From a virus, in IMG/VR virus record IMGVR_UViG_3300014911_000001, positions 111,797 through 175,796 of that record: a stretch of DNA of 64,000 nt; one strand, written 5' to 3'. Position numbers and translations under genes: made by a program. Below are positions 1 to 64,000 of this stretch, piece by piece; position 1 is the first letter of the stretch; each line of letters opens with the position of its first letter. A model generated the notes under the pieces. The model searched no databases. It worked only from the letters and a program-made list of their open reading frames with translations, and had not been told where the DNA came from.

Positions 1-1107
1 TCCATAACTGCGGAGAAATGGGGTGTTATATGGAGTGTTGATGAGCATGTTATTAAGAACAACCAATGGGATATCCTTAAGATGTCTCTTAGGAATGCTG
101 CTCGAGCGCTTGCTAGACATAAGGAGAAGCAGGCCTATGAGCACATAAGGCATGGTGGGATAATACTATTCTCGAACTGGAGAAAGAATCATGCTGTTTT
201 CAAGAACTTCCTCAGGGGGCGTGATATAAAGTTAAGGCAGAACGGTAGCCTTTCACCGAGAGACTTTTTCCAGGGTTATGCGTACTTCCTGCAGAATGAA
301 TTTATCCCTGATGTTGTTATTATGAACTCATGGTCGTGGCTTGTATTCCTTTACTCACCTCTTACTAGAGAGATTGTTATGAATGGTAATACCATTGCGC
401 CTGACTTTACCAACTTTAACATGAGGGTCCGCAGCAGATGGCGTGAGGTATGGAACTCTCTTGGTAAGAAGGGTATTCTTGGTGGCAACAGCCCTGATGA
501 TATATTTGGTAAGATAGGTCTGAGCATTTTTGAGCCGACGAATGCTCCTTGGAGCTGGAATCCGCTTGGTGTTGAGGTTTATCATAAGCCTTCTTGGATG
601 CCGGCTGGTATAACATTCCTTATTTCACCATATGCTGATTGGTCGGCCAATGCAACTGATTACATGAATAAATACTTTAGTGGTTGGGACTTTACAGGTG
701 CTCAGTCGTGGGCAGATACGACAACTCCGAAGGACCCGCTTAATATATTTGCGCACAACGACGCTGCGAATAAGAATGATCCTACGAAGACGACAGGTTT
801 CAAAGAAGATGGTACTGTGGCAACATCACCTAGTGATGCACGTACTTATGCAGATCCGACGCTTAATCTAACCGATATAATCATGGTTGATAGTTCAGAG
901 GTTGGAATTCTTTATCAGTATTCAGATCCGACGACTACTAAGTGGTCTGATCCAATGCTGGATATACAGAATAATAAGATTGCTGAGGAATATGGCTTTG
1001 CTGTCAAGTGGGGTGGACGTGCTATAGGTATCTTTGAGGCTGTTGTCATTGATGAGCAGTATACCGCTGAGCTTGTAGCACAGAATGAAATAGCAAAACC
1101 GCTGTAA
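1..1107 (+). CDS. Major capsid protein (HK97-like), 5' truncated by the window edge
   Basis: Frame 1 is open from base 1 (SITAEKWGVIWSVDEHVIKNNQWDILKMSLRNAARALARHKEKQ), so the ATG at 82 is internal. The K-x-G...QWD...AARALARHKE spine-helix pattern and C-terminal KIAEEYGFAV resemble large-phage capsid proteins; the gene lies directly upstream of neck and sheath genes. Confidence 0.8.
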   Translation, partial: SITAEKWGVIWSVDEHVIKNNQWDILKMSLRNAARALARHKEKQAYEHIRHGGIILFSNWRKNHAVFKNFLRGRDIKLRQNGSLSPRDFFQGYAYFLQNEFIPDVVIMNSWSWLVFLYSPLTREIVMNGNTIAPDFTNFNMRVRSRWREVWNSLGKKGILGGNSPDDIFGKIGLSIFEPTNAPWSWNPLGVEVYHKPSWMPAGITFLISPYADWSANATDYMNKYFSGWDFTGAQSWADTTTPKDPLNIFAHNDAANKNDPTKTTGFKEDGTVATSPSDARTYADPTLNLTDIIMVDSSEVGILYQYSDPTTTKWSDPMLDIQNNKIAEEYGFAVKWGGRAIGIFEAVVIDEQYTAELVAQNEIAKPL

Positions 1108-1115
1108 TATAGATT

Positions 1116-1173
1116 AGGCCCGGTCTTCTAGCTCGTTAGACATTGTGATTCTTGTGGCTAGAAGGCCGGGCTT
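1116..1173 (+). terminator. Long stem-loop after the capsid gene (terminator, attenuator or mRNA-stabilising hairpin)
   Basis: AGGCCCGGTCTTCTAGC (1116-1132) pairs with GCTAGAAGGCCGGGCTT (1157-1173) using G-U wobbles, with a 24-nt loop. There is no clear U-tract, and AGGAGG follows at 1179. Confidence 0.6.
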
Positions 1174-1190
1174 CCTATAGGAGGACTATT

Positions 1191-4146: not shown

Positions 4147-7100
4147 ATGCCAAGGGATATAAGAGTAAGATTCAGGCCTACGTTGGTTACCCCTCAGATA
4201 AGAGGGGGGTTTCCCACGCTAGGTGTTTTGATTATCGGTACGGCTACTGATGGCCCGACAAATGAGCCGGTTATTGTAAGGGGTCTTGAAGAAGCACAGG
4301 AGATTTTTGGCAACTTAGGTGAGGGGACTCTGCTGGAGGGTTATCATGAATTTATCACAGGTGCTTCACGTGGTGCAGACCTGCGTACTGTTGTGGGGCT
4401 TATGAGACTGGATTTCGGTGAGTATGCTAGTGTGGAGCTACCAGAGCCATCGACGGGTACAGGGCTAAGCGAGCCAATGGGTGCAACGGCGCTTACTATT
4501 AGAGCAAGATATAAAGGTGAAATATACAATATGTTTACCATATCATATAAAGCGGTAGCTGGCGGGTTTGCTGTATCTATAGTTGTGCCAGCTGAGAAAG
4601 ATCCATCAGGAAAAAGCCAAGAATATGTGCTTCTTTGTGACCCATCAGGTAGTAATACAGAGCTTATAAATAATCTTACGGAGCTGGCTAATGCTATTAA
4701 TCATCATCCAGTGCTGGCACGTTGGTTGTATGCGGAGGTAAACCTTCTTGATAGTAGATATTCAACGTATATATCCAATGGATTTTATTCGGGAGCTGGT
4801 GAGTCATTTAATGCGTGGGGTGTAGGATATAATGAGACTGATAAGGTTATAGATTTTGTGAGCCGATTTAGTGGCTCGCCTAGTAGTGATGTTTTGGATT
4901 CAGATGGTGACGATACACTAGGACAGTATCATCCTTATACGATATTTGGGACGACTCCTATCAATGTTAGGGCCACATCACTTGACAACATACAGAATAT
5001 AAGGAATTTTGGAAAACTGGCATTGTATGATGTGTCTGTGGATGCTAATACGAAGATTGCTAATTTAGGTGTCTATCCTCTTATACAGACCAAAGCCGGT
5101 GCAACAAAATTTTATCCCATAAGCGCATATAATGATTATGATGATGATGGTATGTATATTGATGTACCTAATTATCTAAGGAATTGGGACACCCCCGCGA
5201 CAGCTAAATATCTTATACCGGGTAGATTTCCTGTATCGGAGGCTGTCTTCTATATGGATGTGATTCTGAACCCCAGCGGGGCTTCAGGGGATGTGAATTA
5301 TGTCGAAACTAATATGTTCCTGCCTGTGGATGTTTATGGTGATGTATCACTAGCTAATCTTATTAATGCATCAAGTGTTAGTGATACAAGACGGTTTAGT
5401 TATAAATGGATAATACAGACAGAAGCCGGGACGGTTTATGATAGTGGGGCATCTACTTATACGGGTTGGATGTTGCCTCTTTTCCATTCTCCAATGTCAT
5501 CTATCGGTGGATTAATATTATTCCATCAGAAAGATGGATCGCCGGTTGATGAGTTGGATACGATATTTGGTTCATGGAAATATCTCTATTTAGGTGTGCC
5601 TTCACAGGTAGGTGGATCGGCGCCTGATTGGTATTCTACGACATCTGATGCAGCTACATTAAAACTTATTGATACAGGGGATAGTGAGAAGGTCCATATA
5701 GGTTTGGGTCCTGCATCAGCATTTTTCACGAAGACTGATGTAACGAGCCATTATGGTAATGAGACATCACCGGATGAGAATTATACTAATGCTATAAATA
5801 CGGATGTAAAAGATTTTGATGGTTCGTATTCAGGTAATGAGTTCAAGCTCTATTATTCAACAGATGGTTCATCTTGGCATGAAATTCCTTTGTATTATGA
5901 ATATGATGGTAAATATTGTTCTGGCCTTACATTAGAGTGGACATTTAATGGTCAAACAGATCTGGCCGCCTTAACTGACCTAAATACATTCAAGATCAAA
6001 TTCTTTGATGGGATCACATGGTCCTCGGAGGATGATCCCGAGATCAAAGAAATCCAGTCGAAGTATCCATTCCTTGAGGTTGCGAAGGATACCAGCACTG
6101 GTGAATATTATCTCGTAATAGCTGCTGGAACAAGAATAAGACTAACGGGTTATACACCGAAGGTTATGTTGAAGTACCTGCCTTCGAGGGCGGCGCTTAA
6201 TGACTGGTATGAGTATACTGTCTATCAGGATAGGATTGAGTTTGGTACACCTTATCCATACACAATTAAATTCAAGGTTCATTATCTCAAGGAGTTTGTT
6301 GAGAATGTTGATTACATATATGATTCCGCACAGGGTACATTCCAGATGCTTGACTCTGAATTGATACCACCTGATAAGCTAACATTGCTTTATATGGATT
6401 ACCAGTTTGAGCCTGAGTGGTTTGATACGTCTCGTATCTATACATTATCAGGTGGTTCATCTGGGTTTGAGAGGGCGCGGCCTCTTGAATACTATGCAAA
6501 GTTCCGTACGGCCTTGCAAGCTATAAGCACAGATGATAGATTTGACATTATAGTGCCAAAGGGTGCTTATATAGACACAGTTGATGAGGTATATGATGCA
6601 TCTATATCTTCGACGACATATGTTAATGTAGGCTATGTGGATCTCTTTGATGAGTTTACGCAGAAACGTGCTGATGATGGCAACCCAACGATTGTTATCC
6701 TAGCAGCGGAACCTTATAAACCTGAGACAGCTATTGTAGGTTATACCCGTGAGGGTATAGCTAATTGGGTAACAAGGATGACCGATACTACATCAATTGA
6801 TCCCCGTTCGCCGGCGGGCTTAATTGCCTCTGTGACTGACAATCCAATGATGTGTGTTACTGTTGTACCGATAGCACTTATAGCACCGGGCGGCGCTTAT
6901 TACATATCGGATGGAGCTGCATTCCTTGCGGGTCTTGCTGCAAGATTCCATTATGTGCCCCGCACTGCAGCTAATGAGAGTCTTTACAACCTTGCACTTC
7001 CTAATGGTGTCAGACCTGCGTTTAGATTATCGGAGTCACAGGTTGATGCATTGCTCAACATGCGTTACATAGTGTTCCACATGGGTCAGGATGGAGCGCC

Positions 7101-7431: not shown

Positions 7432-7456
7432 GATTGGTGGAAGGAATATCAAGTAG

Positions 7457-7493
7457 AAGGCCCTCCGTATGAAGCGGGGGGCCTTTTTGTTTT
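7457..7493 (+). terminator. Rho-independent terminator
   Basis: AAGGCCCTCCG-TATGAAG-CGGGGGGCCTT followed by TTTGTTTT, downstream of the sheath stop codon. Confidence 0.85.
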
Positions 7494-7509
7494 GGTATGT
7501 TGTCTTGAG

Positions 7510-7743: not shown

Positions 7744-7758
7744 TATTAGGAGGTTATT

Positions 7759-9791: not shown

Positions 9792-11794
9792 TAGTCCGCC
9801 GTTTTGTAAATACTAACATATATAAGAATCTACAGGAGAAGCAGGGCATAACGGACAATGATGGTACTGTTTCCTATAAGCCGGCTGAGGAAACGACTTT
9901 TGATATACCTTATTTAGAGGATTTTTATACCCCTGCGCTTATTACGCTTTACTTTGATGGCATAAGGATAGCTGAGGCTGTTTTTGTGGAATATGTTTAT
10001 AATGATCAGAAGATACCTGTTTATGGTTATGGGGATCGTTATGTTCGTGCATTTGAGGAGGGGCATCATTTAATAAGCGGGCGCATGGGGTTTTTATTTA
10101 AGGAGACGGCTTATTTATCGAGTGTTATTGATTTGGTATCAGGAAGCCGGCTTATTACCACACCCGGAGGTGAAAGTGCTGTATATGCATTGCTGCAGAG
10201 AGTACTGAGCGATCCTGAGGTTAATGAAAAAGTTGAATATATGAGGCAGATTTTGACATCGGTATTTGGGTTGGAGCCCTTCAAGGTTGGGCAGCTTAAT
10301 GCTAATCAGATGATTAATTTATTAAAGATTTATAAGTCTGTTATTTATATGACTGTGAATCCCCGCTATGGCGCCACAGGTCCTTTGGTGACAGAGGCAA
10401 TGAACAGTAGCGAAGCGCTTAGTTCTCCCTCATCGCCACTGGTATGGAAGATCGGCTCGCCTCATGTTATATCGGCAATGTTAGATATGGAGGATGTCTT
10501 TGGTGAGGTGGCTATTGAAGGATTGTGGGAATCAGTGGAAGATGCATTATGGAGTAAGGAGGTGCCGGGCTTAGACATTGCACCCATCGTAGAGCATGAT
10601 TTAGGTTATACAGGTTATGGGTATGTAATATCTGACAAAACATTTGATGTTTTTATAAGGTATGGTGCTGATGGATCAAGCATTACAGACCATACAGTTG
10701 AGGTTATCAATGATGTCCATCTTGTATCAAGTGGCAAGAGCATCAATGTTGGCTCGCCTGATCTTGTTGTTGAGGTTTTGGAGTTCATAGCGCGCACTAA
10801 CAATCGGCGGCTTAATATCTACCAGCATAAACAGGTATCGGAGACGGATGAGCTTATTCCACCGCAAATGGATAGTGGTATGAGCGAGGGGAAGAAGTAT
10901 TTTAGTTATAAGAAAGAAGAAATGGAGAATGCGAGGGTCGGGGATCAGGAAAAGGAGAAATATAGAAAGCTTTCAGAAGAGGAATTGAAAGAAATGCGGG
11001 CTACCTTGTGCGGTCGTTGTATTGATGAAAGATGTAGTATCAAGGTGGGTAGTTTTGGGTTTAACACGTTGAAAGATAGCTTGTTTGAACATACAGGTAT
11101 AACATTAGATATTAGCTATCGAGGTGAGACTCATTTTGGTCCTTTGGTCATATATGAAAAACCGACATTTACTTTGAGTGTGGAGAAGACAGTTGATAAT
11201 TTGTTGGCTAATATTGCAAAATTATCGCAGGCTGCTACAAGGGGATCATTGGGTGGATTTGTAGTAGAGAAAGGTTTGTTGGAAGTTGTGTGGGGGCAGC
11301 ATCCTAAACTTGAGCAGCAGGGCCCTCATAAAGTAAGGACAGTTGGTTGTCCTTTTGCGTTTGCGGAGGCGGTTGTAGAAAATTTGAAGCCATCATTTTG
11401 TTTACGCTACTTGAATGCTCTTTTAAGGTATAGTGCCCCACCGAGTGCTATTATTGATGATTTGCGTGCTATTTTAGATTATGTTACTTCGCATTCAGGT
11501 ATCGCAAGTTTGAAGTTTCCTATAGCTATTGCTATGGCTGGTCATGGTGATGAGTTTAATAAAAACATTTCGCAATATATGAAAGGGGTTCATGTGCCAC
11601 AATTTGATGTATATGATGGATTAAAGATAAGTGTAAAAAAAGCACTACTACAAATAAATGAAGGGGAAAATACTCCTTATAAATTGGCTGTTTTGCCGTT
11701 GTACATAATTATGATTGATTTAGCTGACCGTGAATCGGTATTGAATTTTAAAAATAAGCTTGACACATGGACATTCCATCATTATTATTACTGA
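9788..11794 (+). CDS. Third tube-fold protein (tube initiator / baseplate-proximal tube-like)
   Basis: ITLYFDGIRI...QKIPVYGYG...GHHLISG, and later FDVFIRYG...INDVHLVSSGKSI...VEVLEFIAR, complete a split tube-like pattern. Confidence 0.6.
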   Translation: MIVRRFVNTNIYKNLQEKQGITDNDGTVSYKPAEETTFDIPYLEDFYTPALITLYFDGIRIAEAVFVEYVYNDQKIPVYGYGDRYVRAFEEGHHLISGRMGFLFKETAYLSSVIDLVSGSRLITTPGGESAVYALLQRVLSDPEVNEKVEYMRQILTSVFGLEPFKVGQLNANQMINLLKIYKSVIYMTVNPRYGATGPLVTEAMNSSEALSSPSSPLVWKIGSPHVISAMLDMEDVFGEVAIEGLWESVEDALWSKEVPGLDIAPIVEHDLGYTGYGYVISDKTFDVFIRYGADGSSITDHTVEVINDVHLVSSGKSINVGSPDLVVEVLEFIARTNNRRLNIYQHKQVSETDELIPPQMDSGMSEGKKYFSYKKEEMENARVGDQEKEKYRKLSEEELKEMRATLCGRCIDERCSIKVGSFGFNTLKDSLFEHTGITLDISYRGETHFGPLVIYEKPTFTLSVEKTVDNLLANIAKLSQAATRGSLGGFVVEKGLLEVVWGQHPKLEQQGPHKVRTVGCPFAFAEAVVENLKPSFCLRYLNALLRYSAPPSAIIDDLRAILDYVTSHSGIASLKFPIAIAMAGHGDEFNKNISQYMKGVHVPQFDVYDGLKISVKKALLQINEGENTPYKLAVLPLYIIMIDLADRESVLNFKNKLDTWTFHHYYY

Positions 11795-12876: not shown

Positions 12877-15800
12877 GCCCTTTCTTTTCCAGAGTGATTT
12901 AGCACGCATACGCACAGATGAGACATTGCGCAGCCGTTATGGGTGGGGTCGTACACTTTTGCGTTTTGGAGTGGCGATGGCTTCCTTTGCTGTTTTGTCT
13001 TATGGTGCGCGTTCCTTATCGCGTGCATGGCGTGCATTGGCCACATCTGGAGCATTATCACGGAAGTTTGTTGAAGGCGTTAAGGTAGTAAAGAAGTTAG
13101 GGCTTGAGCAGGGTAACTTACTTGATGTAATATTATCAGTATCTAGGCGTGCGCGTCGAGTTGCTTATAAATATGTTAAGTGGTCGCAAGATTATAGGGA
13201 TGCGTCGCGGCTTCTGCATTTTGGTAAGGCATTAAGGAAAATATGGAGCGGTGGTAAAGCATCATTAAAGGGTTTTAGGAAGGCGCGTGAGGCTTATCGA
13301 CGGGTTGGATTACGAGGTGCATTGTTTGGTGCCTTTTTGCGTGGTGCAGAAAGAGGTGTTGGATTTGCGATTTTATCTTCGGCTGCTGATGCATTAACAC
13401 ATTCATTTATAACACCTGCGGATAGAGAGAAGACAAGAAAGTATGGTCCTGTTGCTCGTGTGAAGCGTTTTTTCACTGATGCTGTCCTATTTAGTGGATT
13501 ACAAGGACTTTGGGGTGTATCAAAAGTTGCCTTTCCTACCTATATACATAGGTATAGCCCACAAATACAGCGTTTTCTTACCCGCATTGGAGCGCCTACT
13601 TATGTGGCTAAGTTTTATGGATGGAGGCGTCGCTTCTATGATTATCTAATTCGTGCTATAGAATATAAGCAGAAGTTTACTCAGAAATTGCAAGGTGCTA
13701 ATATATGGCAGCACATAAAGCAGCAGATGAAGGAGCATCCCGGGTTAGGTGCTATTGCAACCTATTTGCGGGAGCAGATAAGGGAAGCTCATCTACATGC
13801 TAAGAAATCGTTTAGGAGGCCGGGTGGATTTCCACCAAGGAGTGGTTATGATACGGTTATAACAATGATGAATTATGCGAAAGAGGTTAATGTTAAGGAT
13901 CCTAAGTTTGCAGCGGAGATTGCAGCTCAAGCTGTTGGACGTTATAAAGGTGTGAGTAAGTGGCGGCGGCTTCTTAATATCGAACGTGAAAGGTTGACCA
14001 AGAAGCAGGCTGTTGCTTTCAGGGAGATGCTTGAGAAAATGGGGTTTAGCAAGTCATGGATCGAGACATTAAAGGGGGAGGAACGCAAGTTTTATGAGAA
14101 TCTGTATTACCGTGTGATGAGGGGACCATTGTTCCATGGTCCCGGATGGTTTGAAGTAGCCGGGCAAAAGTTTTCACAGTATGAGACGCGTTATTTTGTA
14201 AAAGGAATTCTCCAGAATCTATATGCTGGTCGATGGAGGGGGGTTACACGCATTTTGGCTTCTGCGGCGGGCTTAGACCTCTATGCCAACCGCAGACCTG
14301 TATTTATCTTCCATCCTACCATGGATATTCCGATGAGCGTTCCTATACCGACTGATGAGGGTGTTCGTATGCTACGCTTGGTAACCGAACGTGGTAATGA
14401 TCGGGTTCGTCATGGGATTGTATTCTTACAGAATAAATTGTACAGATTATCGCCGACAGAGGAGGGTGGTGAATATTTTGTGGATAGGGTTATAGAGAAT
14501 GTTAAATTATATGAGAGCCCGGCTTATAACATATTAAAGAGGGAGTTAACGCAGTATTATATCAAGCAGAGGCGGCGCACGGATGAGATAGGTTTGCGTC
14601 CACCCGGTGAATATGTTAGGGATATAATCAGGAAATTATCGCGGGGTGTTGATAAGGCTAGCTTAGAGGAATTGGTTAATGTATATAAGTCAACCCGTTC
14701 GACGGCCCATATTATCTTTGGTAAATTGTTATCAAAGAAGGAGGTCCGTGAGGTTGCATCGCAGATCTTGGAGCAATTAGGCGCGAGTAGAGCGCAAAGG
14801 ATCTTGCAGATGGATGAGGCATCATTAATCAGGGAACTTGAGAAGGTTATAGAAAAGCCTGCACAGGTAACGGAGCGGCTTCGTAACAAGTTTATCTATC
14901 TTATAAATGCATCACGGAGTAGGATGAGGACTATGAAGGATCTTTTGAATCAGGAGTTTATAGGTTCTGGATATGCAGAAGCACGGGCTAGGCATGTTAT
15001 TGAGTCGTTCTTAATTGAGCAGCATTTGACACCAGAAATAAGGGCGAAATTCTTTAGCAGGCTTGCTGAGGAGCAGTTGATCGGGAAGTGGATAAGGAAG
15101 CCGGCTTATACACATTTCTTCAAAGCATTAGCAGAGCTAGCACCTGTTGAGATGGATGCAGAAGCTCTAAGGTCTACTATAAAGGGCGCGCTTAATGATA
15201 TTGTAGTCGGTTGGAAAAAATTACCTACAGTTGATCCATTTAGGCCGATATCTGCCTTATTCCAGTATGGTGGATTGGGTATCCACAGGTTATTTGAACC
15301 TACCATAGAAGGTATACGGGTAATGGGTACTACAGTACCATTTACTGTTGTTAGAGAAGGTATGAGTCCATTTAAACGGTATACGGTAACAAGTTTATTG
15401 TTTTCCCATCACTTACGGCGCATATGGGGATTTATGGATTATGTAAGCAAAGCTCCTCGCAAGTTTCCTATTATCAGGCATTTATTAAGGCGATTAGACC
15501 CTAGATTGGCTGATACGGCGCATATCTTTCCATTTGAGACTAATACTACTGGTTGGACGGCTTCAGATATGATAAAGAATTTATGGAAGCCGGCGGCTAC
15601 ATTATTGGCATTAGGTGTAGGATATAAGGCTGTTGATACATTCTTTGATGAAAGTGGTTTATTTGAAGGGACTGCATTAGGAGAGGGGTTGACACCTGCT
15701 ATACTGGATGCATATGCATTAGGTCGTCTTTCCTTGGCAAGAGTATTGGATATTGCAGGTGTAACTGATGCAGCGCGGTATTTAGAGGGATTAATGCCGG

Positions 15801-21600: not shown

Positions 21601-24600
21601 TTTCCTATCAAGCGTTTTGTTGGTCATGCTATTGGTAGGAATCTAAGAGGTCTTACTATAAAGCAGTATATGGCACTGCGCCGCGGTGTGAGTGCACCAA
21701 AAATAAATTTGGGGGATATATGGAAGGAGATATTTAGCGACAAAGCAGCTGCTCATCCATTATACGACATGTTGAGTAATGATAATATGTTGAAACTTGG
21801 ATTGATGGATGAGTCTGCTCAGGCAGGTTATGCACAATGTGCATTAATAAGGGAAATCTTTAATAGATTGGTAGAATCGGGGCTTCATCTTACCAACCCA
21901 GAGCAGTACATCAAGTATGGTACTTTCGTAATGACGGACCGGCTTCAGCTTGGTGATAAGGTTGTAAAAATTGGTTATAATGGTAAATTGGTTTTTAATA
22001 AAATAATTACATCTTATGATCTTACAGGTGTACCTTCATTAGATTTTTCACTTACCTATGAGATAGTTTTGCCAACTCCCTTAAAGTGGGTTACATATTA
22101 TCAAAAAGGTATGGGGACAGCACAGCGCTGGTCCTTAAGCCAATTTCCATATTATCTTATAGAACCGGCACGTTTTATGGAGCGTGGTGAATTGGGCATC
22201 TTTATAGAGACAGAGATGACCCGGCTAAAGGAGGCATTAATTAAAAAATATGGTGTGCGGGAAGCCGCCAATGTTATGTCAAAGATGACAAAGGACCTCA
22301 ATGATTATATGAATAGAGTGGTTAATTACGCTATTAAGGAGCACGGGCTTCCCATCAAACTTACCAGTCCGTTGTTTATATTCAATCCCAAAATGATGGC
22401 AATAGAGGGCAATTATGATTTGTTTAACACATTGACAACAGAACAAAAGGGATTATTGTGGACAGTATTTTTGGAGGGTTTACCTGAGAAGGTGGGAAAG
22501 ATTGGTGGATATCCAAGCTTGTTTGATTATCTTGAGGCTAAATTCAAGGAGCATGGTATTGTTGTAACTCCCCAAGAAAGGAGGATATTCAGAAGATATG
22601 TACAGAAACAATATGCGTTGTATAAGAACAAAAAGATAAGCGAAAAGGAATTTTTTGAAACAGTCTTGCTGAAGGACATAGCTGATGAGAGGATACGAAA
22701 CTGGTTTAGCAGATTATATTATGGAGATGATAGGGAGCAGCTGGCGCGCTTATTCGATATATATCAGATAAAATTAGGTAAAAGGGTTGTTGAGCTTATT
22801 GGTTTGGGCCGTCATAGCCCCTTTGGGTTGGGTGATACGGCTCTAACTAGTACCTACAAAAGTTTTGTTCGTATACCAATGCAGATGTATTGGGATATCC
22901 ATCGCTGGCCTCATTTAGAGGGTATGGCTCAATTTATTGATGCCTTCCAAGCTCAGAATCTACCTATTTATGAGACACTTCTTAAGATGGCTGATATGCT
23001 AAAAATGAGTCAGTCATCTATTGATGAGTTGGTGAAGGCAGGGGGTATCTATGCTGTACCGGTGCGGCGCTTCTTTGACTTTGTGCGCAAACATATGAAT
23101 CTTCTTAGGTCAATAAGGGAGGATATATATGTACCAGAAAAGATATTAGAGGAGGCTCATGGTGATATGGTTCGTGCTGTCCAAATGATGCTTGATCTGG
23201 GTGTATCGTTAACGGATTTTAAGGAGAATGCTATAAAGTTTGAAGGCGCGCAGGTCCGTGCGCAGGTTGCCAAGGAAGTGCAGGATTTCCTCAGACAGAT
23301 ATTTGAGGAGGCGCAAGGGAAGCGCGTTGTTATCGATGTAGGCAGGGCAATGTCTGTTTCCTATAAGAACCTTGAGTCGATGATTGGTCAGAATGATGCT
23401 ATTATTAGGGATCTTATAAAATATTTAGAGAGAATGGGTTACAACAAGCTGAAGTATATACCATTGGGGACAAGGGAATTTTGGGATCTGTCATTCCACC
23501 AGATTGGTAGAGACCAAGTTATTGTTGAGCCTCAGGTTAAGAAGTTGCTGCAATTAATGGCATCGATTGCATCAATTAAGGGTAAGGTGCAAGCAACTGG
23601 TGTGCCATCGGCGCAGGTTAAATTTGAAGAGAGAAATGTATTTTATAAGCAGTTTGTTAATTATCTTGGTTCTATAGCTAGTAGCTTTATAGGCCGGCAA
23701 TCCTTATGGGCACGCACTGCTGTAACACATCTTCCTGGTGTTGAGGGTGTTGGACTTCCGTCCTTCTTGCTTTTTAATAAGTCGCGGCTTCTTGACACAG
23801 TTGTATGGGAGCCATTTACGACCTATGTTGATGCTTCTGTTATTGAGAATCTCAGAGGTATGTTGGAAGCCGCCGGCTTCTCCAAGGAATTTATCGATGC
23901 TTTTTACAAGGGCAGTCCTAATGTAGCATTTTTAGGTATGCCCGGACGTATGCCATTCCACCCCGGTATGGGATTGATAGGATTTATAAAGAGTTTAACC
24001 AAGCAGCAGAAGAAACATGTTTCATCTGTAAGCGATGCCGTTAAAATATATATGGATCCTTTATTGATAACGAAGGTTCTATTAGGTGACTGGGATACAG
24101 ATAGATTGATGGCGTTACTAACAATGACATCTCCGAAGGGTGCTGAGGATATAACAAGGATATGGAAGTGGGTCTATGGTTTATCAGATCAGGATGTTGC
24201 ATTTCTTATGTCGTATGGTAAGTTTAGAGCTGGTGACAGGAAGGCTATAGGTGAATTGCAGACATTTTTTACGTCTGTTTTTGAGAAGATGACAAAAGAG
24301 CAGAAGGAGGCATATATACAGAGCAAAGAGTTTGAGGATATGCTCCACAAAAGATTATCAGCCATTGTTGCAAGAATGAAGGAAGGATATTTGAGCTGGT
24401 TTGGTAAGTCTGAGGCAGAAGAGTTAAGCGAGCGGGTCGAGTTTTTAGTGACAGGTGATGTGACGAAGATACCGACAACGGAGGGTAAGGTTATTTATTT
24501 ACCGACTATATTAGCGCAGATGCGTGGTTATACGATGAAGATTGAAAAAATGTGGCCATTTATACAGGAGGCCAAGGAAATTGCGAGGAAGGAAGGAATT

Positions 24601-45632: not shown

Positions 45633-46044
45633 TATTGGCGAGACAGCCATTATACCGGTTTTATTTTTTGATGAATCGTATAGTTTGATGGATCCTGTTG
45701 AATTGGAAGGAGAGTGTGTTACTCTTACGATGTATCGTCTTGATGCAGCGCCGTCCGTAGCAAAGTTTATTGATGACTTTAGATGGATACACACAGGAGC
45801 TGCGGGCTTATATGATCTGGAGGTCATTGTTGAAGAAAATATACTAAGTGGTGGAGATTATTATATTGGGGCAACGAGATATGATGTGGGTATTTATGCA
45901 TTGAAGGTTAAGCCGCGGCTTCCTGGCACTTATTATATTGTTGTAGAGGCTCATGCATCTGGTCTTGCTAGCGAATGTGTTTTACAAACCTTTACTGTAA
46001 GATTCATAGAGAAGAGAGATCCATCATTATTATTAATGGAATGA
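45625..46044 (+). CDS. Hypothetical Ig-like structural protein
   Basis: ORF track 45598..46044; likely start ATG 45625 after AGGAGG; LPGTYYIVVEA strand pattern. Confidence 0.5.
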   Translation: MYSIGETAIIPVLFFDESYSLMDPVELEGECVTLTMYRLDAAPSVAKFIDDFRWIHTGAAGLYDLEVIVEENILSGGDYYIGATRYDVGIYALKVKPRLPGTYYIVVEAHASGLASECVLQTFTVRFIEKRDPSLLLME

Positions 46045-46942: not shown

Positions 46943-47172
46943 TACGTAAGGAAAGAGAGACATATGCTGGGGCTGTCTATGTAACTGGTATACCGATGCC
47001 TCTGACACCGAGGGCATTTGATGGATTATACATTGGGGGGCTTCTTTTGCCTTACTATGTCCCTAATGAGTTCTATGATCGGTTGCAAACAGATGCTGTT
47101 AACTTTATAAATTCTGTTTTTGACTTCTGGAGGCCGGCGGGCTTATGTCGCTACATCTATTTGAAAGATTAG
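46939..47172 (+). CDS. Small hypothetical protein, possibly a baseplate wedge (gpI-like) C-terminal module
   Basis: ATGA coupling; ends with a helix plus FWRPAGLCRYIYL, similar to the K/R-PA-G/H motif of wedge proteins. Confidence 0.4.
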   Translation: MIRKERETYAGAVYVTGIPMPLTPRAFDGLYIGGLLLPYYVPNEFYDRLQTDAVNFINSVFDFWRPAGLCRYIYLKD

Positions 47173-51589: not shown

Positions 51590-53011
51590 ATGACGGAAGA
51601 TAGGTTACTACAACTAATACATAATGGGGAGTTTGATGATTATATTGAAACGCTGGATCTCAGAATCAAGAAGTTGCGCAATATAGCTGATGATTATGCA
51701 AGATTAATGGATGCGATAGAAACAAGTTTTATGTATGACTTAGATATTATCCAAAAGTGGAGCATACATGTCCTACGTGACTATCTGAGGAAGAGATTTG
51801 ATGTTGTATGGGAGTGGAAGATCTCTGATTGGGATTTGGCTAATATAAAGGCGCAGTTAGCTCACAGTATTGTTGTTGATGGTGTGATGGTTAAGGATCT
51901 TTATATTTTAAATGGCAGAAGGGTTACATTTGAAGGTACATATCATAATTTAACGGATGTTAATGAAGATACATATTTTCGTATTCACGGTTACCGTCAG
52001 GCAGCTGTAGCTTTTCAGATACAAATTAGTAAAGGGGTAAAATATTTAGCAATAAACATGTTCCCCCGTTGGCATCAGTATGTATATTTAATGTCGACTG
52101 ATGGACGAAGGTTATCTAATACAGTTCTCAATGCCGGAATTGTTCTTATACCAGTAAAGGAGCCCGGCGATTATTTCCTTGTTGTTGGTGAGTTATTTGA
52201 TAGAGAAAGCATCATAATGATATCAGATATTATTGCATTAGGGGAATATCAGGATGTACCAGAGGTTACGTTATCATGGAAGCCGGCGGGCTTCTACAAT
52301 TACTTCTTTGTTTATCCATTACTTGCCGGAAAAACGGCTTTGAAGGTAACCGATGGTACTAATAGTGTGGATATTTCATATGGTATTAACTTTATACAAA
52401 AGTGGATGGTTGAGGAGTCTGAAGCCCGCGCTTCGACCAGCATTGATTACTTAGGGACCCATTATAATAAGGCTTATTTAGTGGATTCAATATCACCTAT
52501 TGTTGCCAAGAAGACGGAGGGGGAGCGGCTTATTTATTATTTCCCCAAGTTAACTACTGTTAAAGGAAGCGGGCGGCTTCTACAGCTCGACAGAACATGG
52601 AGGTTCACGCGTCCTATTGACATTGATGGTGAAAAATCATTGATCGGAGTTTTCAAATCCGATGGTAGTGATTTTGAGATTGATGGTATTTATCTGGCAT
52701 TCAGCAAGCCTTTATACTTTATTGATAAGGACTATTTTTATGTAAAGGATAGCAGAGGACATATATATCTTGTATTTAGGCGTAATCCAAGCGAACTAGA
52801 AGCTGGTGATGCGATATACTGGTATAATCTAAAGGATATGAGCATTAAAGTTAAAGCAACACATGGTGGTGTGTTGTTCATGGGTTCGGATAACACATTG
52901 TTACCATTGGCACCTAAGCGTCCAATCAATTTTGAGTTAGGTGGTTATGGTGAAGGTCCATTATCAGCTCCTGGTGGAACTCCTATGGAGGAAGAAGAGG
53001 AAATATCATGA
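51590..53011 (+). CDS. Hypothetical structural protein with N-terminal coiled coil
   Basis: 473-aa co-oriented ORF. Confidence 0.5.
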   Translation: MTEDRLLQLIHNGEFDDYIETLDLRIKKLRNIADDYARLMDAIETSFMYDLDIIQKWSIHVLRDYLRKRFDVVWEWKISDWDLANIKAQLAHSIVVDGVMVKDLYILNGRRVTFEGTYHNLTDVNEDTYFRIHGYRQAAVAFQIQISKGVKYLAINMFPRWHQYVYLMSTDGRRLSNTVLNAGIVLIPVKEPGDYFLVVGELFDRESIIMISDIIALGEYQDVPEVTLSWKPAGFYNYFFVYPLLAGKTALKVTDGTNSVDISYGINFIQKWMVEESEARASTSIDYLGTHYNKAYLVDSISPIVAKKTEGERLIYYFPKLTTVKGSGRLLQLDRTWRFTRPIDIDGEKSLIGVFKSDGSDFEIDGIYLAFSKPLYFIDKDYFYVKDSRGHIYLVFRRNPSELEAGDAIYWYNLKDMSIKVKATHGGVLFMGSDNTLLPLAPKRPINFELGGYGEGPLSAPGGTPMEEEEEIS

Positions 53012-55583: not shown

Positions 55584-55813
55584 TGATTGGATTTGCGCGG
55601 GTTAATGAGTTTTTTGATGTTACAGAAAAGAATGGTATAGCTAATAAACTATCCGATGCAGTAATAAGGCAAATAGCGATGGAGAAGCCGGCTTCATATA
55701 GATTAGATGGGCATGAGCTTAAGGTTGAATATATCGTTGATGATGGCTACGGATTACTTATCCTATTCCGTCCCAATATGCAACAGTTAGTGTATATTAG
55801 AGATGGGAGATAA
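55583..55813 (+). CDS. Small hypothetical protein
   Basis: ORF track 55568..55813; likely start ATG 55583 (TAATG, RBS GGAGG). Confidence 0.45.
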   Translation: MIGFARVNEFFDVTEKNGIANKLSDAVIRQIAMEKPASYRLDGHELKVEYIVDDGYGLLILFRPNMQQLVYIRDGR

Positions 55814-56171: not shown

Positions 56172-58550
56172 ATGCTTTTATTATGGACAAATATCCCGGA
56201 AGCACGGGGATATATTGTTTATAAAGCCCCGCACTTTGTCTATCCGACAGGAAAGTTGTCAGAACCAAAGTGTGTCTGTAAAGGGGATAGTGATACATCG
56301 GACCCGGGCTTCAGCGTACCCTCCTATGTTGACGATGGATTAAAGGGGTTTTTAAGCCCGCCAGAAGGTTATAATTTTTATGCCTATACCGAAAGCAATC
56401 ATTTGGAGGTTGATACAGGTGTTTATGTAGTTGTTGCGATTAATGGTATTTGTGCATCAAGTTATTCAAATCCTGTTAGCATTGTTTCTGAGTTGGAGGA
56501 AAAAACCATATCAGTAGCTATAAGGGAGGTGCCTGTTGATGATACTGTTGTAGCCAAGCGTTTCTGTCGGTGGGGTGTATTTTTAACAAAAGTGCATTGG
56601 AATTTTAATATTGATAGCATTATAAGTACTGACTATAATGTTGACATTGAATTCAGCACTCTAACCAGCGGTTCCTTTGTACTTACTGGTGTACCTCCTA
56701 CTGGTAGTGAGGATGTATCAGGTAGGTCATTTTATAAGTATGCTTTCGAGCCATTGGTCATAAAGGTCAGTACTGATGGCTGTTCTATCAGTCAAGTAAA
56801 TATTGCTATTGATGTTGTTTTGATTGAATACCCGCTAGATGTTATAAGGGCTGCCTTGGAGAAAACAACGGTTATAGATCGTTTTGATAAACCTGAGCCA
56901 TCCTTAGATTATGTCACAACGGGTTATCTTAGGAAGCCGTTGATATTAGATTGGATTTATGTCGACACATCTGGTTCTTTAGATGCATATTTATTATTGC
57001 ATAAGCGCGGGCTTTATCATCATTATGATTTGTCATTGGATAATAAGTTTAAGCCGCCGCTTGTTTTAAGTGATATGGATGATCTAGCACTATATACTAA
57101 AGGTGACACAGGTTCTGTAGTTATGGTAAGTGAAGGCCCGCTTCAGGTAAAGCAAGATAAATTACCTGACATGAAGGATGTTTATTTTGAGGGCGGCTTC
57201 CTCTTAGGGCATGATAGAGAGATAAGGCGTATATATCTGTTCAAGGGGGCAATCAAACATATTGATGTCCAATTTTACAAGCAGCATGATGATGCCGAAC
57301 TGACGGTTTATACACCACAGGCGGGGCTTCAAACATTTTTCATCCCTAAGGATATTTTATCTGCACAGTTCGTTACTGACATTCCATTTGATGCTGGTTC
57401 ATATATAGTAATAAGTTCAACAGAAGAGCATCCTATTACTGTGGATTGTGATGTGCGCATTGAGATATGGAGAGAGTATCCACCTTGCATATGTGAAGTT
57501 GCTGTTGAGGAAGAGGAAGAGGAGGGCGCGCGGCCTCTAATTTACGACGGCACCTATTTTGAAGGCGGGGCTAATGGCTGGCGCTACAAGACATATCCTT
57601 TCCAAGCACATCTATCCAAAGTAATGTTCCTTGGACACGATTTATTTGATGTACCCGTGCGATACAACTTCTATGTTAATGGGGACCTAGTAAAGACGTA
57701 TGATCTTAATTTCTCAACTAGCCGGCTTCTACAATTTGATTTAGATATAACAGTCCCGTCTAATGGTGTCCTTGTTATTGAGCAGATTATTATGGATCGT
57801 ACAATGTATGAGGTTACAAGGGATGTTGATGTCATATGGTCGCTTACCTTCGAGGGTGAAGGAGCATATGTAGCAACATACACGGCGGCTGATTCTGTAC
57901 TCCTGAATTCACCATCATCTAATAGTACAACAGAATTCCAGCTTATTGATGCTATTACATTTCCACATGCTGTTCATTTGACGGGCATGAGTGCTTCGGC
58001 GGCTTCTGGTAGCGATAATGCTATATACAAGGTTGAAATACCGGATTTAGATGTTAGCTATGAATTTACAAGTACATATCTATGTGATCCTGTTGTAGAG
58101 GTGCCGCCTTACACTGCTATAAGGGCTTATTATAAGGTCAATGATCCTGAAGGGGATGAGGTTGCATACCCACAAGTCCTTTTGCATATAGGCTTTTTGG
58201 CTGAACGTGAGGAGTTTGTTGATCTTGATAATGTGGGTATATTTTGGTTGAGGGAGCATAGCGGGAGTCTGTATGACACTATTACTCATCAGCTTGCTCT
58301 GCCAAGTGGTACCTATAGGTGCATCTTCTTGCAGGCATCTGTTTACCAAACGCCGTTGGATGAAGCAGATATTATTATTGATATAGGAGGAAGCGGAGAT
58401 ACTCTTAATGTGAAGCCGGGGCTTCATAACATTTACAAAACAACGGATTTCACCTTTGGTAATATGGATACAGTTACAGTAAGTTCAAGTGACCCGCGGC
58501 TTATGCACGGTATTGTTATCATGGCTATCTATCAGAAGGTTGAGACATGA
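56172..58550 (+). CDS. Multi-domain beta-sandwich protein with an N-terminal FN3-like domain
   Basis: LLWTNIPEARGYIVYK...VYVVVAING...SSYSNPVSI FN3 pattern, followed by several modules of about 100 aa. Confidence 0.55.
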   Translation: MLLLWTNIPEARGYIVYKAPHFVYPTGKLSEPKCVCKGDSDTSDPGFSVPSYVDDGLKGFLSPPEGYNFYAYTESNHLEVDTGVYVVVAINGICASSYSNPVSIVSELEEKTISVAIREVPVDDTVVAKRFCRWGVFLTKVHWNFNIDSIISTDYNVDIEFSTLTSGSFVLTGVPPTGSEDVSGRSFYKYAFEPLVIKVSTDGCSISQVNIAIDVVLIEYPLDVIRAALEKTTVIDRFDKPEPSLDYVTTGYLRKPLILDWIYVDTSGSLDAYLLLHKRGLYHHYDLSLDNKFKPPLVLSDMDDLALYTKGDTGSVVMVSEGPLQVKQDKLPDMKDVYFEGGFLLGHDREIRRIYLFKGAIKHIDVQFYKQHDDAELTVYTPQAGLQTFFIPKDILSAQFVTDIPFDAGSYIVISSTEEHPITVDCDVRIEIWREYPPCICEVAVEEEEEEGARPLIYDGTYFEGGANGWRYKTYPFQAHLSKVMFLGHDLFDVPVRYNFYVNGDLVKTYDLNFSTSRLLQFDLDITVPSNGVLVIEQIIMDRTMYEVTRDVDVIWSLTFEGEGAYVATYTAADSVLLNSPSSNSTTEFQLIDAITFPHAVHLTGMSASAASGSDNAIYKVEIPDLDVSYEFTSTYLCDPVVEVPPYTAIRAYYKVNDPEGDEVAYPQVLLHIGFLAEREEFVDLDNVGIFWLREHSGSLYDTITHQLALPSGTYRCIFLQASVYQTPLDEADIIIDIGGSGDTLNVKPGLHNIYKTTDFTFGNMDTVTVSSSDPRLMHGIVIMAIYQKVET

Positions 58551-61429: not shown

Positions 61430-61441
61430 GGGGGTGGAACA

Positions 61442-63397
61442 ATGAAACGCTATATAGCCATAATTGTTTTGTTGTCCTTTACGCTATCATTTGCTCTTGT
61501 GCCCATGAAAATTGTGTATAAAGGGCGGCTTACTGATGCTAATAATAAAGTGCTGAATGGTACTTATGACATGATATTTAGAATTTATGATGGTGGTTGT
61601 AATAGTGATTGCTCGGAGTGTACAGGTACCAAGCTTACCGATGATACGGTATCTGTTGAAGTGAATGATGGTTACTTCCATCATGTTATTGATCTATCGT
61701 CTGTATCATTAGAAAAATTAAATAAGCAACTGTTTTTGGAAATATGGGTTAAATATGGAGATTTTGAAAGGCTGTGCCCTCGCGAGACGCTATACACGCG
61801 GGCTCCTTATACTATATGGGCGAGATCAAGTGCTGTGGCTGAGACAGCAAATGTAGTGGGGAGCGGGGCTGTTAATACAAGTGCGCCTGTTGCAGGTGAT
61901 GGGACAGCAAGCAGTCCTATAACATTATCATATGGAGGCGGGCTTACCCTATCAGGTAGTGCATTGATAATCGCATTTGATAATAGTACTATTGATACCA
62001 ATTCTGCTGGTAAGGTTCGTGTTAAACCCGGTGGCATTACATCGACGGAAATTAATGATGGAGTTGTATTTTCATCTATACAAAATAGTTCTGGTACTGA
62101 ACAGTTTACTGTTACTGATGGCAATACCGCATTACAATTTGCTGCATCGGGGATGAATTCCGTTTCGTTTAATTCAACTTATAACCGTATTACTTATACA
62201 GCGACGGCTTCAGTAAGTGCTCCTATCACAGGTAATGGAACATCAGGATCGCCTATAGGCTTAAACTATAGTACGGGGCTTACATTATCTGGTTCCAGTT
62301 TGATTATAGATGAAAATAATATCCCATATACTCCTAGTGATCTAACGGATTGGAATGGTAGTGCTGATCCGGGCGATGTTGATGATGGTTTAGATCAATT
62401 AGCTGATCGTGTGAAGTCTATTGAAGGTGGTAATAATACGAACTATATTCAAAATCAGTATGGTACAGCTCAGTCAGCTAATTTCTGGATTGGTGGAAAA
62501 GGCAAGGCTGGTCAGCTTACTGCTATTGATACATTGTTCCTTAATAATGTGCTAAAGATTTACCTAAGTGGAAATACAATATATTATGCCTCGGATTCCG
62601 TTTTAGATTTTGGCGGTGGCTTAATAATTGAAAAGGACAACGATGTGAAAGTTAATGCTGATCTTTATGTTCCGAATGCATCAGTGAATTCATCGGCAGA
62701 AACGCTATTGGCTATAACAGGTGGTAAGGTAGAAAAGATATTGAGGTCTAGCGTTACAGCTGGCGTATCGTCTATCACTGGTGGTTTAGGTCTCAATCCT
62801 GATGCTGTGACAGAGGGTGATGTTGTAATGACTGTTGATATGACAGAGCTTCGTCTTAAGGGATTGGTGGCAACTACATATGATTCACTAAGGGTCAAGG
62901 TAGATGGCAATACTATATGTTTTGGTGGTTCTAATGAGTTGAAGGTTTGTACTGGTGGAATATCAACGACTCACATTAGTGATGGAACTATAGTTGATAA
63001 TGACATAAGCGCCACAGCTAATATAGCATGGAGTAAAATTAACAAATCTGGTTCATCGATAGATGATATAGGGGATGTTAGTACATCAGGGGCAGCAAAC
63101 GGTGCGCTTCTTTACTATAATGGATCATCATGGGTTGATTTATCCCCAGGTACAAGCGGTTATGTCCTAAGAACTAATGGAGCAGGCTCGGCGCCTTCAT
63201 GGAGCACACTAAATAGTTTATCAGCAGGTGATGGACTTACATATGTTTCAGGTGGGCCATATAATGGTATGAGTGATCTGACGCTAAAGGTTGATATAGC
63301 TGATTCATCTCTTACTATTATAGGTGGCAAGCTTGCTGTTACCCATGGAAGCCCGGTGGCTACGTCTAGTAATTTCAAGTTATATAATAATCATTAA
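61442..63397 (+). CDS. Secreted fibre/adhesin-like protein, paralog B (651 aa)
   Basis: Signal peptide MKRYIAIIVLLSFTLSFA; collinear with paralog A, roughly 70% identical by eye after the N-terminal domain. Confidence 0.75.
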   Translation: MKRYIAIIVLLSFTLSFALVPMKIVYKGRLTDANNKVLNGTYDMIFRIYDGGCNSDCSECTGTKLTDDTVSVEVNDGYFHHVIDLSSVSLEKLNKQLFLEIWVKYGDFERLCPRETLYTRAPYTIWARSSAVAETANVVGSGAVNTSAPVAGDGTASSPITLSYGGGLTLSGSALIIAFDNSTIDTNSAGKVRVKPGGITSTEINDGVVFSSIQNSSGTEQFTVTDGNTALQFAASGMNSVSFNSTYNRITYTATASVSAPITGNGTSGSPIGLNYSTGLTLSGSSLIIDENNIPYTPSDLTDWNGSADPGDVDDGLDQLADRVKSIEGGNNTNYIQNQYGTAQSANFWIGGKGKAGQLTAIDTLFLNNVLKIYLSGNTIYYASDSVLDFGGGLIIEKDNDVKVNADLYVPNASVNSSAETLLAITGGKVEKILRSSVTAGVSSITGGLGLNPDAVTEGDVVMTVDMTELRLKGLVATTYDSLRVKVDGNTICFGGSNELKVCTGGISTTHISDGTIVDNDISATANIAWSKINKSGSSIDDIGDVSTSGAANGALLYYNGSSWVDLSPGTSGYVLRTNGAGSAPSWSTLNSLSAGDGLTYVSGGPYNGMSDLTLKVDIADSSLTIIGGKLAVTHGSPVATSSNFKLYNNH

Positions 63398-63412
63398 TAA
63401 GGAGTAGTTGAT

Positions 63413-64000
63413 ATGAAGCCGCGGCTTCTTCTACTCATCAGCATTCTTATGATTATTAATACATGTTTAGCAGGTGTGCCTAAGGTATTGATGATAAAGA
63501 GGCAACTGGCCAGTAGTGATGGATCTGTCATAAATGGGGATACGACTATTGCCATATGTATATATGATGTTGGATGTAGTGGTAGTGATTGTCCTGATGC
63601 ATGTACGGGCAGTCCTATAGTATGTGATACGCAGGTAGTAACTGTAAGCGGCGGCTACTTCTACTTCAAATTAGATTTATCATCAGTGGATGATTCATAT
63701 TTATCAGATACTCTCTATCTTATGGTTTCAGTAAAAAATGGTGGATCTTATGAGGATCTATGTCCTAGGGAGACTCTTTATGCGACGCATACATATGCAC
63801 TGAGTTCACATATTGCAGATAAATCATATAATAGTGATAGTTTGGGCGGACATCCACCGAGCTATTATTTAGACAATACAGTTGACACATTTATAGCATA
63901 CTGGAGTTATATAAGGGAAATGCCTTCAGGTTTCGCCGATGGGATAGATGATACAGGTCACTATGAACCCAAAGATACTTTTATAGCATACTGGGATAGC
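63413..64000 (+). CDS. Secreted fibre/adhesin-like protein, paralog C, 3' truncated (not in the ORF track)
   Basis: RBS AAGGAG; reads MKPRLLLLISILMIINTCLAGVPKVLMIKRQLASSDGSVING...VSGGYF...LCPRETLY... and stays open to the window end. Same N-terminal domain as paralog B, then DTFIAYW repeats. Confidence 0.7.
   Translation, partial: MKPRLLLLISILMIINTCLAGVPKVLMIKRQLASSDGSVINGDTTIAICIYDVGCSGSDCPDACTGSPIVCDTQVVTVSGGYFYFKLDLSSVDDSYLSDTLYLMVSVKNGGSYEDLCPRETLYATHTYALSSHIADKSYNSDSLGGHPPSYYLDNTVDTFIAYWSYIREMPSGFADGIDDTGHYEPKDTFIAYWDS

Follow-up and report, generated by a model that had tools for sequence, protein, structure and literature searches.

The window considered here, the final 64 kb (positions 111797-175796) of the 175,796-bp virus record IMGVR_UViG_3300014911_000001, belongs to a phage record graded as 100% complete by CheckV, and it is pervaded by a short DNA word in which a run of G and C residues ending in GC is followed by TT and then by A or C. 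The genes in the window are all on the plus strand and are mostly structural, with matches to a tail-sheath and a major head protein that are both weak, and they include four giant open reading frames (ORFs) of 1337-2353 amino acids (aa) with almost no family matches. These four ORFs are consecutive on the plus strand (12854-18685, 18685-25746, 25879-31275 and 31275-35288, encoding 1943, 2353, 1798 and 1337 aa), and no Pfam family was found for any of them, the sole match being a sub-threshold one to Peptidase_M23 at residues 680-743 of the third. The word had first been noticed in a reading of the letters of the window by a model (hereafter the original prediction), where it was described as GGCTT preceded by two G/C bases in a sequence of about 40% GC; the GC content of the window is indeed 40.0%.

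On the plus strand of the window GGCTT occurs 148 times, and 100 of these occurrences (68%) are preceded by two G/C bases, as compared with about 16% expected from composition; with S denoting G or C, SSGGCTT is thus present in 100 copies on the plus strand, and in 37 on the minus strand. These values bear out the manual counts of the original prediction (about 95-100 copies of GGCTT after two G/C bases and about 35 of the reverse complement AAGCC-SS), and are consistent with its composition estimate of about 15%. A wider form, SSSSGCTTM (M denoting A or C), is found 148 times in the window versus 6.4±2.4 in dinucleotide-preserving shuffles, which amounts to a 23-fold excess and to about one copy per 430 bp (104 on the plus and 44 on the minus strand), every gene of the window having copies, while the whole 175.8-kb genome carries 409 such units, or 2.33 per kb over both strands. 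Unbiased k-mer screens rank GGCTT/AAGCC, GGCTTC and GAAGCCG at the top, the top 7-mer GAAGCCG being present in 169 copies versus 11.7 expected.

It has been shown by two kinds of codon shuffle, applied to the 202 called genes, that this excess persists when the encoded proteins are held constant. When synonymous codons were shuffled within each gene, 242 sense copies of SSGGCTT were found genome-wide against 35.5±5.4 expected (z=38), and 103 antisense copies against 30.4±4.7 (z=15). Under a stricter shuffle, in which the amino acids and the dinucleotide formed by the third base of a codon and the first base of the next were both kept, the expectation became 71±6.7 for sense copies (z=25) and 46.7 for antisense copies (z=12), and in the genes of the window this version gave 44 expected versus 134 observed in the sense orientation and 25 versus 57 in the antisense orientation. 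The copies use all three reading frames genome-wide (106/83/53) and the peptides that they encode differ (AGF/AGL, GRL/ARL, AAS/PAS), while intergenic DNA, which makes up 5.5% of the genome, carries 7% of the copies. One copy, GCGGGCTTA (47137..47145, plus strand), has a Shine-Dalgarno-like GGAGG before it and the start codon ATG of the gene at 47145-48356 after it, so that copies are not confined to coding frames. An artefact of codon or amino-acid usage is ruled out by the two codon shuffles together with the copies in every frame. The original prediction had held that the word falls in different frames of unrelated genes and had put forward a codon-preserving shuffle as its control; its description of the frames is accurate, no single frame holding the word, and the enrichment withstands even the junction-preserving version in both orientations.

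GGCTT is the commonest form of the word, although the true unit is wider than had been described and consists of a G/C run of 6-11 nucleotides (nt) with GC as its last two bases, to which TT and either A or C are added. Across aligned sites the base that follows GCTT is C in 358 cases, A in 198, G in 50 and T in 45, and weak A/T preferences come after it; within the run, G and C are near-equal at positions -2 to -5, and position -1 alone prefers G, by about 2:1. The interchangeability of G and C at positions -2 to -5 fits a thermodynamic requirement, that is, one for base-pair strength, over a requirement for base identity. The length of the G/C run before TT[AC], counted with the GC of GCTT included, is bimodal, with counts at 2-5 nt that follow a geometric background (380, 143, 93 and 54 sites) and a further mode spanning 6-11 nt (75, 108, 104, 62, 33 and 19 sites), which peaks at 7-8 nt and falls sharply beyond 11 nt, with 2 sites at 12 nt. 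Runs of at least 7 nt precede 31% of GCTT[AC] sites, most GCTT(A/C) sites being without any run, versus 1-4% of GCTT[GT], GCTA, GCAT, GCAA, GCTG, GGTT, CGTT, GGAA and GCTC sites, and CCTT sites show a small excess (3.7%). Word units account for 58% of all genomic G/C runs of at least 7 nt, and runs of this length are 2-10 times commoner than geometric expectation. Read on the other strand, the (G/T)AAGC core is fixed, and without the run this core is not much enriched. The element is therefore discrete and one-sided, with a fixed part, G-C-T-T-(A/C), and a variable, strength-coded clamp of limited length.

The original prediction had also pointed to eight quasi-palindromes, at about 10144, 15098, 55685, 45910, 63416, 23867, 52281 and 58413, and all of them are present there as double copies in which one run carries both flanks and can be read on each strand. 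They comprise GAAGCCGGCTTA at 10143..10154 and again at 15097..15108, GAAGCCGCCGGCTTC at 23866..23880, TAAGCCGCGGCTTC at 45909..45922, GAAGCCGGCGGGCTTC at 52279..52294, GAAGCCGGCTTC at 55684..55695, GAAGCCGGGGCTTC at 58412..58425 and GAAGCCGCGGCTTC at 63415..63428, the last of which is the commonest 14-mer of the genome and occurs in 9 places. Runs of 7-8 nt with both an AAGC and a GCTT flank number 34 versus 34.3 expected, and runs of at least 9 nt with both flanks number 12 versus 24.2 expected. The left and right flanks are thus independent, and the quasi-palindromes are two half-sites on one run; a palindrome or dimer site is ruled out on this ground, and so is the palindromic unit of the HIP1 type that had been listed among the options. 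Complementarity between neighbouring sites of opposite type does not exceed that of randomly paired sites, and the reverse complement of a run is no commoner within 50 nt than in control windows, so that stems in RNA or DNA, whether long-range or local, are ruled out for want of any excess of complementary arms. Two copies 26 bp apart (7607-7615 and 7633-7641) lie within window positions 7431-7759, where an 83-aa gene is called in the relatives of the phage, with a weak match to DUF3244 and a faint one to Por_Secre_tail. A further word-carrying sequence is GCGCGGCTTC.

Along the genome the gaps between copies are exponential, as in a Poisson process (coefficient of variation 0.98-1.12), and the longest gaps are those expected of random placement; regular spacing is ruled out by this coefficient of variation of about 1. 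The total density of about 2-3 copies per kb is alike in early-type small genes, replication genes and late genes, and the intergenic density equals the coding density. In raw counts, copies on the plus strand predominate at 95-176 kb of the genome and those on the minus strand at 65-95 kb, and the two strands are balanced at 25-65 kb. When the strict shuffle was applied region by region, a 2.0-3.2-fold excess of sense copies and a 1.3-2.3-fold excess of antisense copies was obtained in nearly every region and gene orientation, and a small, oppositely oriented block at 10.5-17.4 kb also shows the sense excess; the exception is a set of plus-strand genes at 56-73.7 kb, 1.8 kb in total, where sense copies number 3 (1.4-fold) and antisense copies 0. 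The strand bias of the word tracks gene orientation. Because genes may be co-oriented with replication, and because the coding strand is strongly G-rich, this bias does not discriminate among mechanisms.

Some regional features of composition may be mentioned at this point. The coding strand of the window has a strong excess of G over C (24.6% versus 15.5%) and also of T over A, and throughout the genome the skew reverses its sign where genes point the other way. The region at 55-75 kb of the genome (L012/L013) has 44-47% GC, as compared with 37-41% elsewhere. A TnpB gene (IS605 OrfB / Cas12f-like TNB) is located on the minus strand at genome 74808-76052 (L013:14808-16052), and the block of 73.7-78.2 kb around it is where copies of the word are divided most unequally between the strands, 1 versus 21. 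A search for the host by way of this TnpB found as its nearest cellular relative a protein merely 28% identical, in a Runella metagenome-assembled genome (MAG).

Evidence on how the copies are kept comes from collinear relatives of the phage, three at 93-94% nucleotide identity (L001, L005 and L008) and one at 84.6% (L003), in all of which the density of the word is equal. Between the window and the most divergent of them, L003, 25 of 31 motif 7-mers (81%) are unchanged (binomial P=4e-8), whereas the unchanged share is 32% for 7-mers as a whole and 29% for those that are G/C-rich and outside the motif. Column by column, 0-3 of 26 sites differ in nine motif columns and 4-7 of 26 in most flanking columns, and 6 of 9 antisense copies are kept, which are few sites. 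A single copy at 1164..1174 (plus strand; a G/C run followed by GCTTC) is the same in L001, L003, L005 and L008 (alignment column 1416). Turnover of copies proceeds mostly through synonymous changes. For example, the copy CGCGGCTTC in the 1943-aa gene (13206..13214, plus strand) has its run shortened in L003 by one synonymous change, TCG to TCA. At 5707..5718 (plus strand) the window holds an empty site, GGT CCT GCA TCA, where L003 has a full copy, GGG CCG GCT TCA (column 5966); Gly-Pro-Ala-Ser is encoded in both, and three third-position changes make the perfect copy. Other gains and losses do change amino acids (NAK to RAS, A to T, A to V). All gains and losses are substitutions, with 0 indels, and a mobile insertion, a GC cluster or a repeat resembling repetitive extragenic palindromic (REP) sequences is ruled out, given that gains are substitutions and that hairpin partners are lacking.

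Selection acting on the nucleotide sequence is the favoured explanation of how the copies are kept. It is favoured over a diffuse mutational bias on account of the bimodal run length, the excess conservation and the coordinated synonymous gains. The original prediction had proposed a signal at the DNA level, as opposed to an effect of coding or composition, and this is supported by the codon shuffles, the use of all frames, the intergenic copies and the excess conservation in relatives; it had left the cause as either selection or a sequence-specific mutational process, and of these two selection is now favoured and a purely mutational process is disfavoured.

Outside the window, the genome encodes on its minus strand (genome 15069-17414) a protein that joins a primase of the DnaG type to a helicase of the DnaB type. 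The domains DNAG_N, Toprim and DnaB_C are recognised in it, the core matches solved DnaG structures and the N-terminus contains a CHC2-like zinc ribbon (C29/H35/C55/C58). The replication set also includes a family-B DNA polymerase, a superfamily 2 (SF2) helicase, a RecA-like protein and a B12-type ribonucleotide reductase, and further genes outside the window encode PhoH, a UDG-superfamily protein, a PD-(D/E)XK nuclease and TnpB. The UDG-superfamily protein (L010:5804-6532, plus strand; E=1.7e-14) and a weak match below the cut-off to a nucleoside 2-deoxyribosyltransferase-like protein (L011:10174-10830, minus strand) may point to roles in DNA repair or nucleotide salvage. No tRNA genes were found in the phage genome. 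No match to the modification and repair families PF00145, PF01555, PF02086, PF03852, PF01702 and PF00303, or to the type IB topoisomerase family PF01028, was found in the phage genome, and no Rfam match at the gathering threshold was found in the window or at 40-100 kb of the genome.

The composition of the proteome looks thermophilic. Its fraction of the residues IVYWREL is 0.428 (0.426-0.429 in fragments of the same clade), as compared with 0.373 in T7 and 0.38-0.40 in distant phages and the Runella locus, and Gln is low while Tyr, Arg, Glu and Lys are high. In the amino-acid regression of Zeldovich (2007), a value of 0.428 reportedly corresponds to roughly 65 °C, which would suggest host growth near 60-70 °C. 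With regard to the origin of the sequences, one source sequencing run appears in a study of methane-cycling anoxic metagenomes (PMC9723712).

This phage clade is isolated. Among 1.84 billion representatives, relatives of the primase-helicase form one cluster at 93% identity and are then at most 31% identical, relatives of the capsid protein are found at 71-100% identity only, and no cultured relatives were found in the phage collection. In three distant phages of 41-45% GC, with primase-helicases 26-28% identical to that of the phage, SSGCTTM occurs at 0.3-0.6 per kb versus 3.2 here and there is no excess of long G/C runs; the word is likewise absent from the distant primase-helicase phages L016-L020. 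Sequence collections were scanned with the commonest 14-mer, GAAGCCGCGGCTTC, as query, a pattern with A/T flanks being used for the Joint Genome Institute (JGI) metagenomes. Among 111 matches in IMG/VR, the dense loci are 5 fragments, all of this clade. Among the 118 matches listed for the JGI metagenomes, 7 are clade fragments, in which 34% of GCTT[AC] sites carry a long run, and 43 AT-rich matches from outside the clade are at background level once two ascertained copies per locus are set aside. Among the matches listed in these scans, no contig outside this phage clade has the word in dense copies. From a host with a phage-like density of the word, far more matches would be expected than the phage contributes to those listed, and this is moderate evidence that the word is owned by the phage and not by its host.

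Four contigs were considered as carriers outside the clade and were rejected. One (L171) has a local chance cluster in a Roizmanbacteria clpB gene with 20-kb surroundings at background, another (L079) has just three G/C runs of at least 7 nt, and L202 and L214 are bacterial contigs with a roughly 2-3-fold excess by pattern counts only, ascertainment included. L202 is the 7.8-kb metagenome contig C687J13239_1000218, with bacterial genes for FtsK, a RodZ-like helix-turn-helix (HTH) protein and RecA. It has 11 copies of SSSSGCTTM versus 3.9±1.9 expected, and 9 of the 11 are opposite to the gene strand, so that the sense strand reads GAAGC-S; this mild excess probably reflects Glu-Ala codon context together with ascertainment.

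The reading preferred here, to which a probability of roughly one in three is assigned, is that the copies are preferred start sites of the phage's own primase, a proposal that is absent from the options of the original prediction and is based on the fit between the word and what such enzymes require. Primases of the DnaG and T7 gp4 type use a short site at the template 3' end, start with a purine opposite a pyrimidine and copy toward the template 5' end, and the T4 primase gp61 uses GCT or GTT. It has been reported that DnaG enzymes use the sites d(CTA), d(TTA) and d(CTG) and begin at the central base of each (PMC2978363), that AtTwinkle, a T7-type primase-helicase, uses the site 5'-(G/C)GGA and can require two cryptic bases (PMC5737085), that the T7 site is 5'-(G/T)(G/T)GTC and that its 3' flank influences site choice (PMC12839067), and that the DnaG of the hyperthermophile Aquifex initiates on G/C triplets only, with d(CCC) as its site (PMC2532735). 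The phage encodes a primase of the cognate type with a zinc-binding domain, and the fixed GCTT(A/C) of its word lies 3' of the degenerate run, in the geometry of a primase site, where CTT would template A-A-G or A-G. Furthermore, interchangeable G and C are what a requirement for hybrid stability predicts, and the limit of the run at about 11 nt is within the range of primer lengths.

According to this proposal, the fixed 3' part, GCTT(A/C), would be recognised by the zinc-binding domain on the template of the lagging strand in its single-stranded state, and the final one or two bases of this part would be cryptic, i.e. recognised and not copied. The primer would begin with a purine opposite T or C (pppA-A-G-C..., pppA-G-C... 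or pppG-C...), and the G/C run would then be copied into a short, almost all-G/C RNA primer that could stay annealed long enough for hand-over to the family-B polymerase. The need for such a clamp may lie in priming at high temperature, under which usable primers would be made only on G/C-clamped GCTT(A/C) and selection would install and maintain the roughly 400 sites; this part of the reading is put forward tentatively, as rather less likely than not. On each strand, selection would write in such a template about every 0.8-1 kb, a spacing on the scale of Okazaki fragments. Since the chance supply at 40% GC is just about 0.1 sites per kb, a need of this kind could be met by selection alone.

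A number of points weigh against the primase reading. In the genome of T7, which among phages with an enzyme of this type has been studied best, the recognition pentamers of T7 itself show no noticeable enrichment or strand bias; to our knowledge there is no precedent for genome-wide selection for priming sites, and we know of no primase that needs a site of 9-14 nt. The spacing of the word is random and not regular, and the sense excess follows gene orientation and is not assignable to the direction of the fork. Close relatives are all at least 84% identical, which puts co-variation between the word and the zinc-binding domain outside their reach. Moreover, the link between word and primase is purely a matter of fit, and the estimate of thermophily leans on an amino-acid regression.

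Among the alternatives, a duplex binding site of a phage DNA-binding protein, for example a genome-organising, condensing, packaging-associated or self-marking one, is an unlikely but serious candidate; a site for a genome-organising or packaging protein had stood among the options of the original prediction. A monomer could contact the bases of GCTT(A/C) and sense the G/C run from its shape or via the minor groove, where G:C and C:G are alike, and several properties of the word are in keeping with this: the unit is one-sided, its footprint of 9-14 bp is about one helical turn, G and C are interchangeable within the run, the density is even over all gene classes and intergenic DNA, and the word is specific to the clade. 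Candidates for such a protein exist, as most phage proteins, including the four giant virion proteins, are without a family assignment; nevertheless, no candidate protein has been identified, a run varying from 6 to 11 nt is unusual for a fixed protein footprint, and a binding site leaves both the sense-strand excess and the need for about 400 sites unexplained.

It is quite unlikely that the word acts as a Chi-like self marker, which would be read as 5'-(G/T)AAGC-S(n) and would stop or redirect a helicase-nuclease, either the AddAB/RecBCD of the host or a phage-encoded enzyme, thereby protecting linear or rolling-circle phage DNA. The likeness of the letters is close, in that GAAGCCG is one base from the S. 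aureus word GAAGCGG and has the shape of the B. subtilis word AGCGG (bioRxiv 10.1101/2021.07.08.451572), and the density resembles that of short Chi words, with copies on both strands and an orientation bias. In addition, the phage has a PD-(D/E)XK nuclease, a helicase and a RecA-like protein, and its strong ribosome-binding words of the AAGGAGG type suggest a host with strong use of Shine-Dalgarno sequences, from which a Firmicutes-like host may be inferred. On the other hand, Chi is read base by base on single-stranded DNA whereas 4-8 positions of the phage word take G or C, dense copies among the 118 metagenome matches listed are found only in the 7 contigs of the phage clade, and unrelated viral contigs are without the word. 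The original prediction had included a Chi of the host type among its options, which is disfavoured by the interchangeability of G and C and by the fact that no contig from outside the phage carries the word densely among these matches; the uptake sequence that it had also considered is inapplicable to a phage.

A by-product of a sequence-specific DNA process, with no selected signal behind it, is improbable. Such a process could be a nick at GCTT followed by short-patch, G/C-biased resynthesis, or mismatch correction near a modification target, a kind of correction that has been proposed for HIP1 and for the words of very-short-patch repair. The G/C run is of short-patch length and always on one side of a fixed word, the phage has a UDG-superfamily glycosylase, and continuous regeneration would mimic conservation; yet run lengths should form a continuum if every GCTT were acted on, whereas they are bimodal and most GCTT(A/C) sites are runless. 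A modification target, which the original prediction had likewise proposed, loses ground by the outcome of the six family searches, in which no C5, N4/N6 or D12 methyltransferase, Vsr, TGT/DpdA or ThyA-family enzyme was found in the genome, and a host-wide process is opposed by the other contigs among the metagenome matches listed, which lack the word. Lastly, a signal at the level of RNA or transcription is very improbable. In this reading sense SSSSGCUU(A/C) would act in messenger RNA or in an RNA:DNA hybrid, where the unusual RNA polymerases or nucleases of the phage could, for example, pause, form an R-loop or transcript primer or carry out processing. In its favour, sense copies are in excess in nearly every region and in genes on either strand, and transcription hybrids are as long as a G/C-rich stretch of 9-11 nt ending in UU; against it, antisense copies too are strongly enriched (z=12-15), intergenic DNA is as densely occupied as coding DNA, and neither complementary partners or hairpins nor an Rfam match have been found.

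Hyper-abundant words such as Chi, HIP1, uptake sequences and the FtsK-orienting polar sequences (KOPS) are rare, and each of them has revealed a machine for handling DNA. If the copies do prove to be primase starts, the coding sequence of proteins can be constrained by priming of the lagging strand, and a genome visibly sculpted by the site choice of a primase would be seen for the first time; a map of Okazaki-fragment starts would then be readable from sequence, providing a handle on replication in uncultured thermophilic phages. If the word is instead a binding site or a self-marker, it would represent an undescribed phage system of DNA recognition. Literature searches found no description of this word or of genome-wide selection for primase sites.

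In the case of primase sites, the likeness is in the layout, since these have a specific 3' element with one or more cryptic bases and the copied bases 5' of it, GCTTA contains both GCT and TTA, and G/C-only initiation sites do occur in a hyperthermophile (Aquifex). They differ from the phage word in that known sites are 3-5 nt long and common by chance, those of T7 not being visibly enriched, and a site of 9-14 nt selected at about 400 places is undescribed. Chi sequences (E. coli GCTGGTGG, B. subtilis AGCGG and S. aureus GAAGCGG) are likewise G/C-rich, frequent, oriented and mostly intragenic in AT-rich genomes, and the reverse complement of the phage word, (G/T)AAGC-S-S, subsumes GAAGCGG and AGCGG. 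However, Chi is fixed and owned by the host, whereas the phage word takes G or C equally at 4-8 positions, has been seen only in the phage clade among the matches listed, and has as the preferred orientation in its genes the complement of the S. aureus word.

HIP1 of cyanobacteria (GCGATCGC) is tied to cognate methyltransferases, in contrast to the phage genome, which is without methyltransferases of the families PF00145, PF01555 and PF02086, and it is a fixed 8-bp palindrome of cellular genomes, whereas the phage word is one-sided with a degenerate run of variable length. HIP1 resembles the phage word in being a hyper-abundant short word of coding DNA that occurs in all frames and is conserved above background, and its function is reported to be still unsolved after decades (PMC5861425). 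DNA uptake sequences (DUS), uptake signal sequences (USS) and KOPS are also over-represented, oriented words that extend across coding DNA, but they are fixed 8-12-mers of bacterial chromosomes tied to the competence machinery or to FtsK and dif, neither of which contexts fits a genome of the lytic phage type, and the phage word is degenerate. Yeast mitochondrial GC clusters and in-frame palindromic repeats (RPE and REPIN-like) form G/C-rich islands in AT-rich DNA, sometimes within genes, but they are mobile hairpin insertions of at least 30 bp, whereas the phage copies are made by point substitutions and have no hairpin partners. In conclusion, a fixed pentamer joined to a purely strength-coded run is a combination that known words lack, and the word described here differs from them in being phage-intrinsic, one-sided and composite, with a clamp that is coded by strength and held within a window of length.

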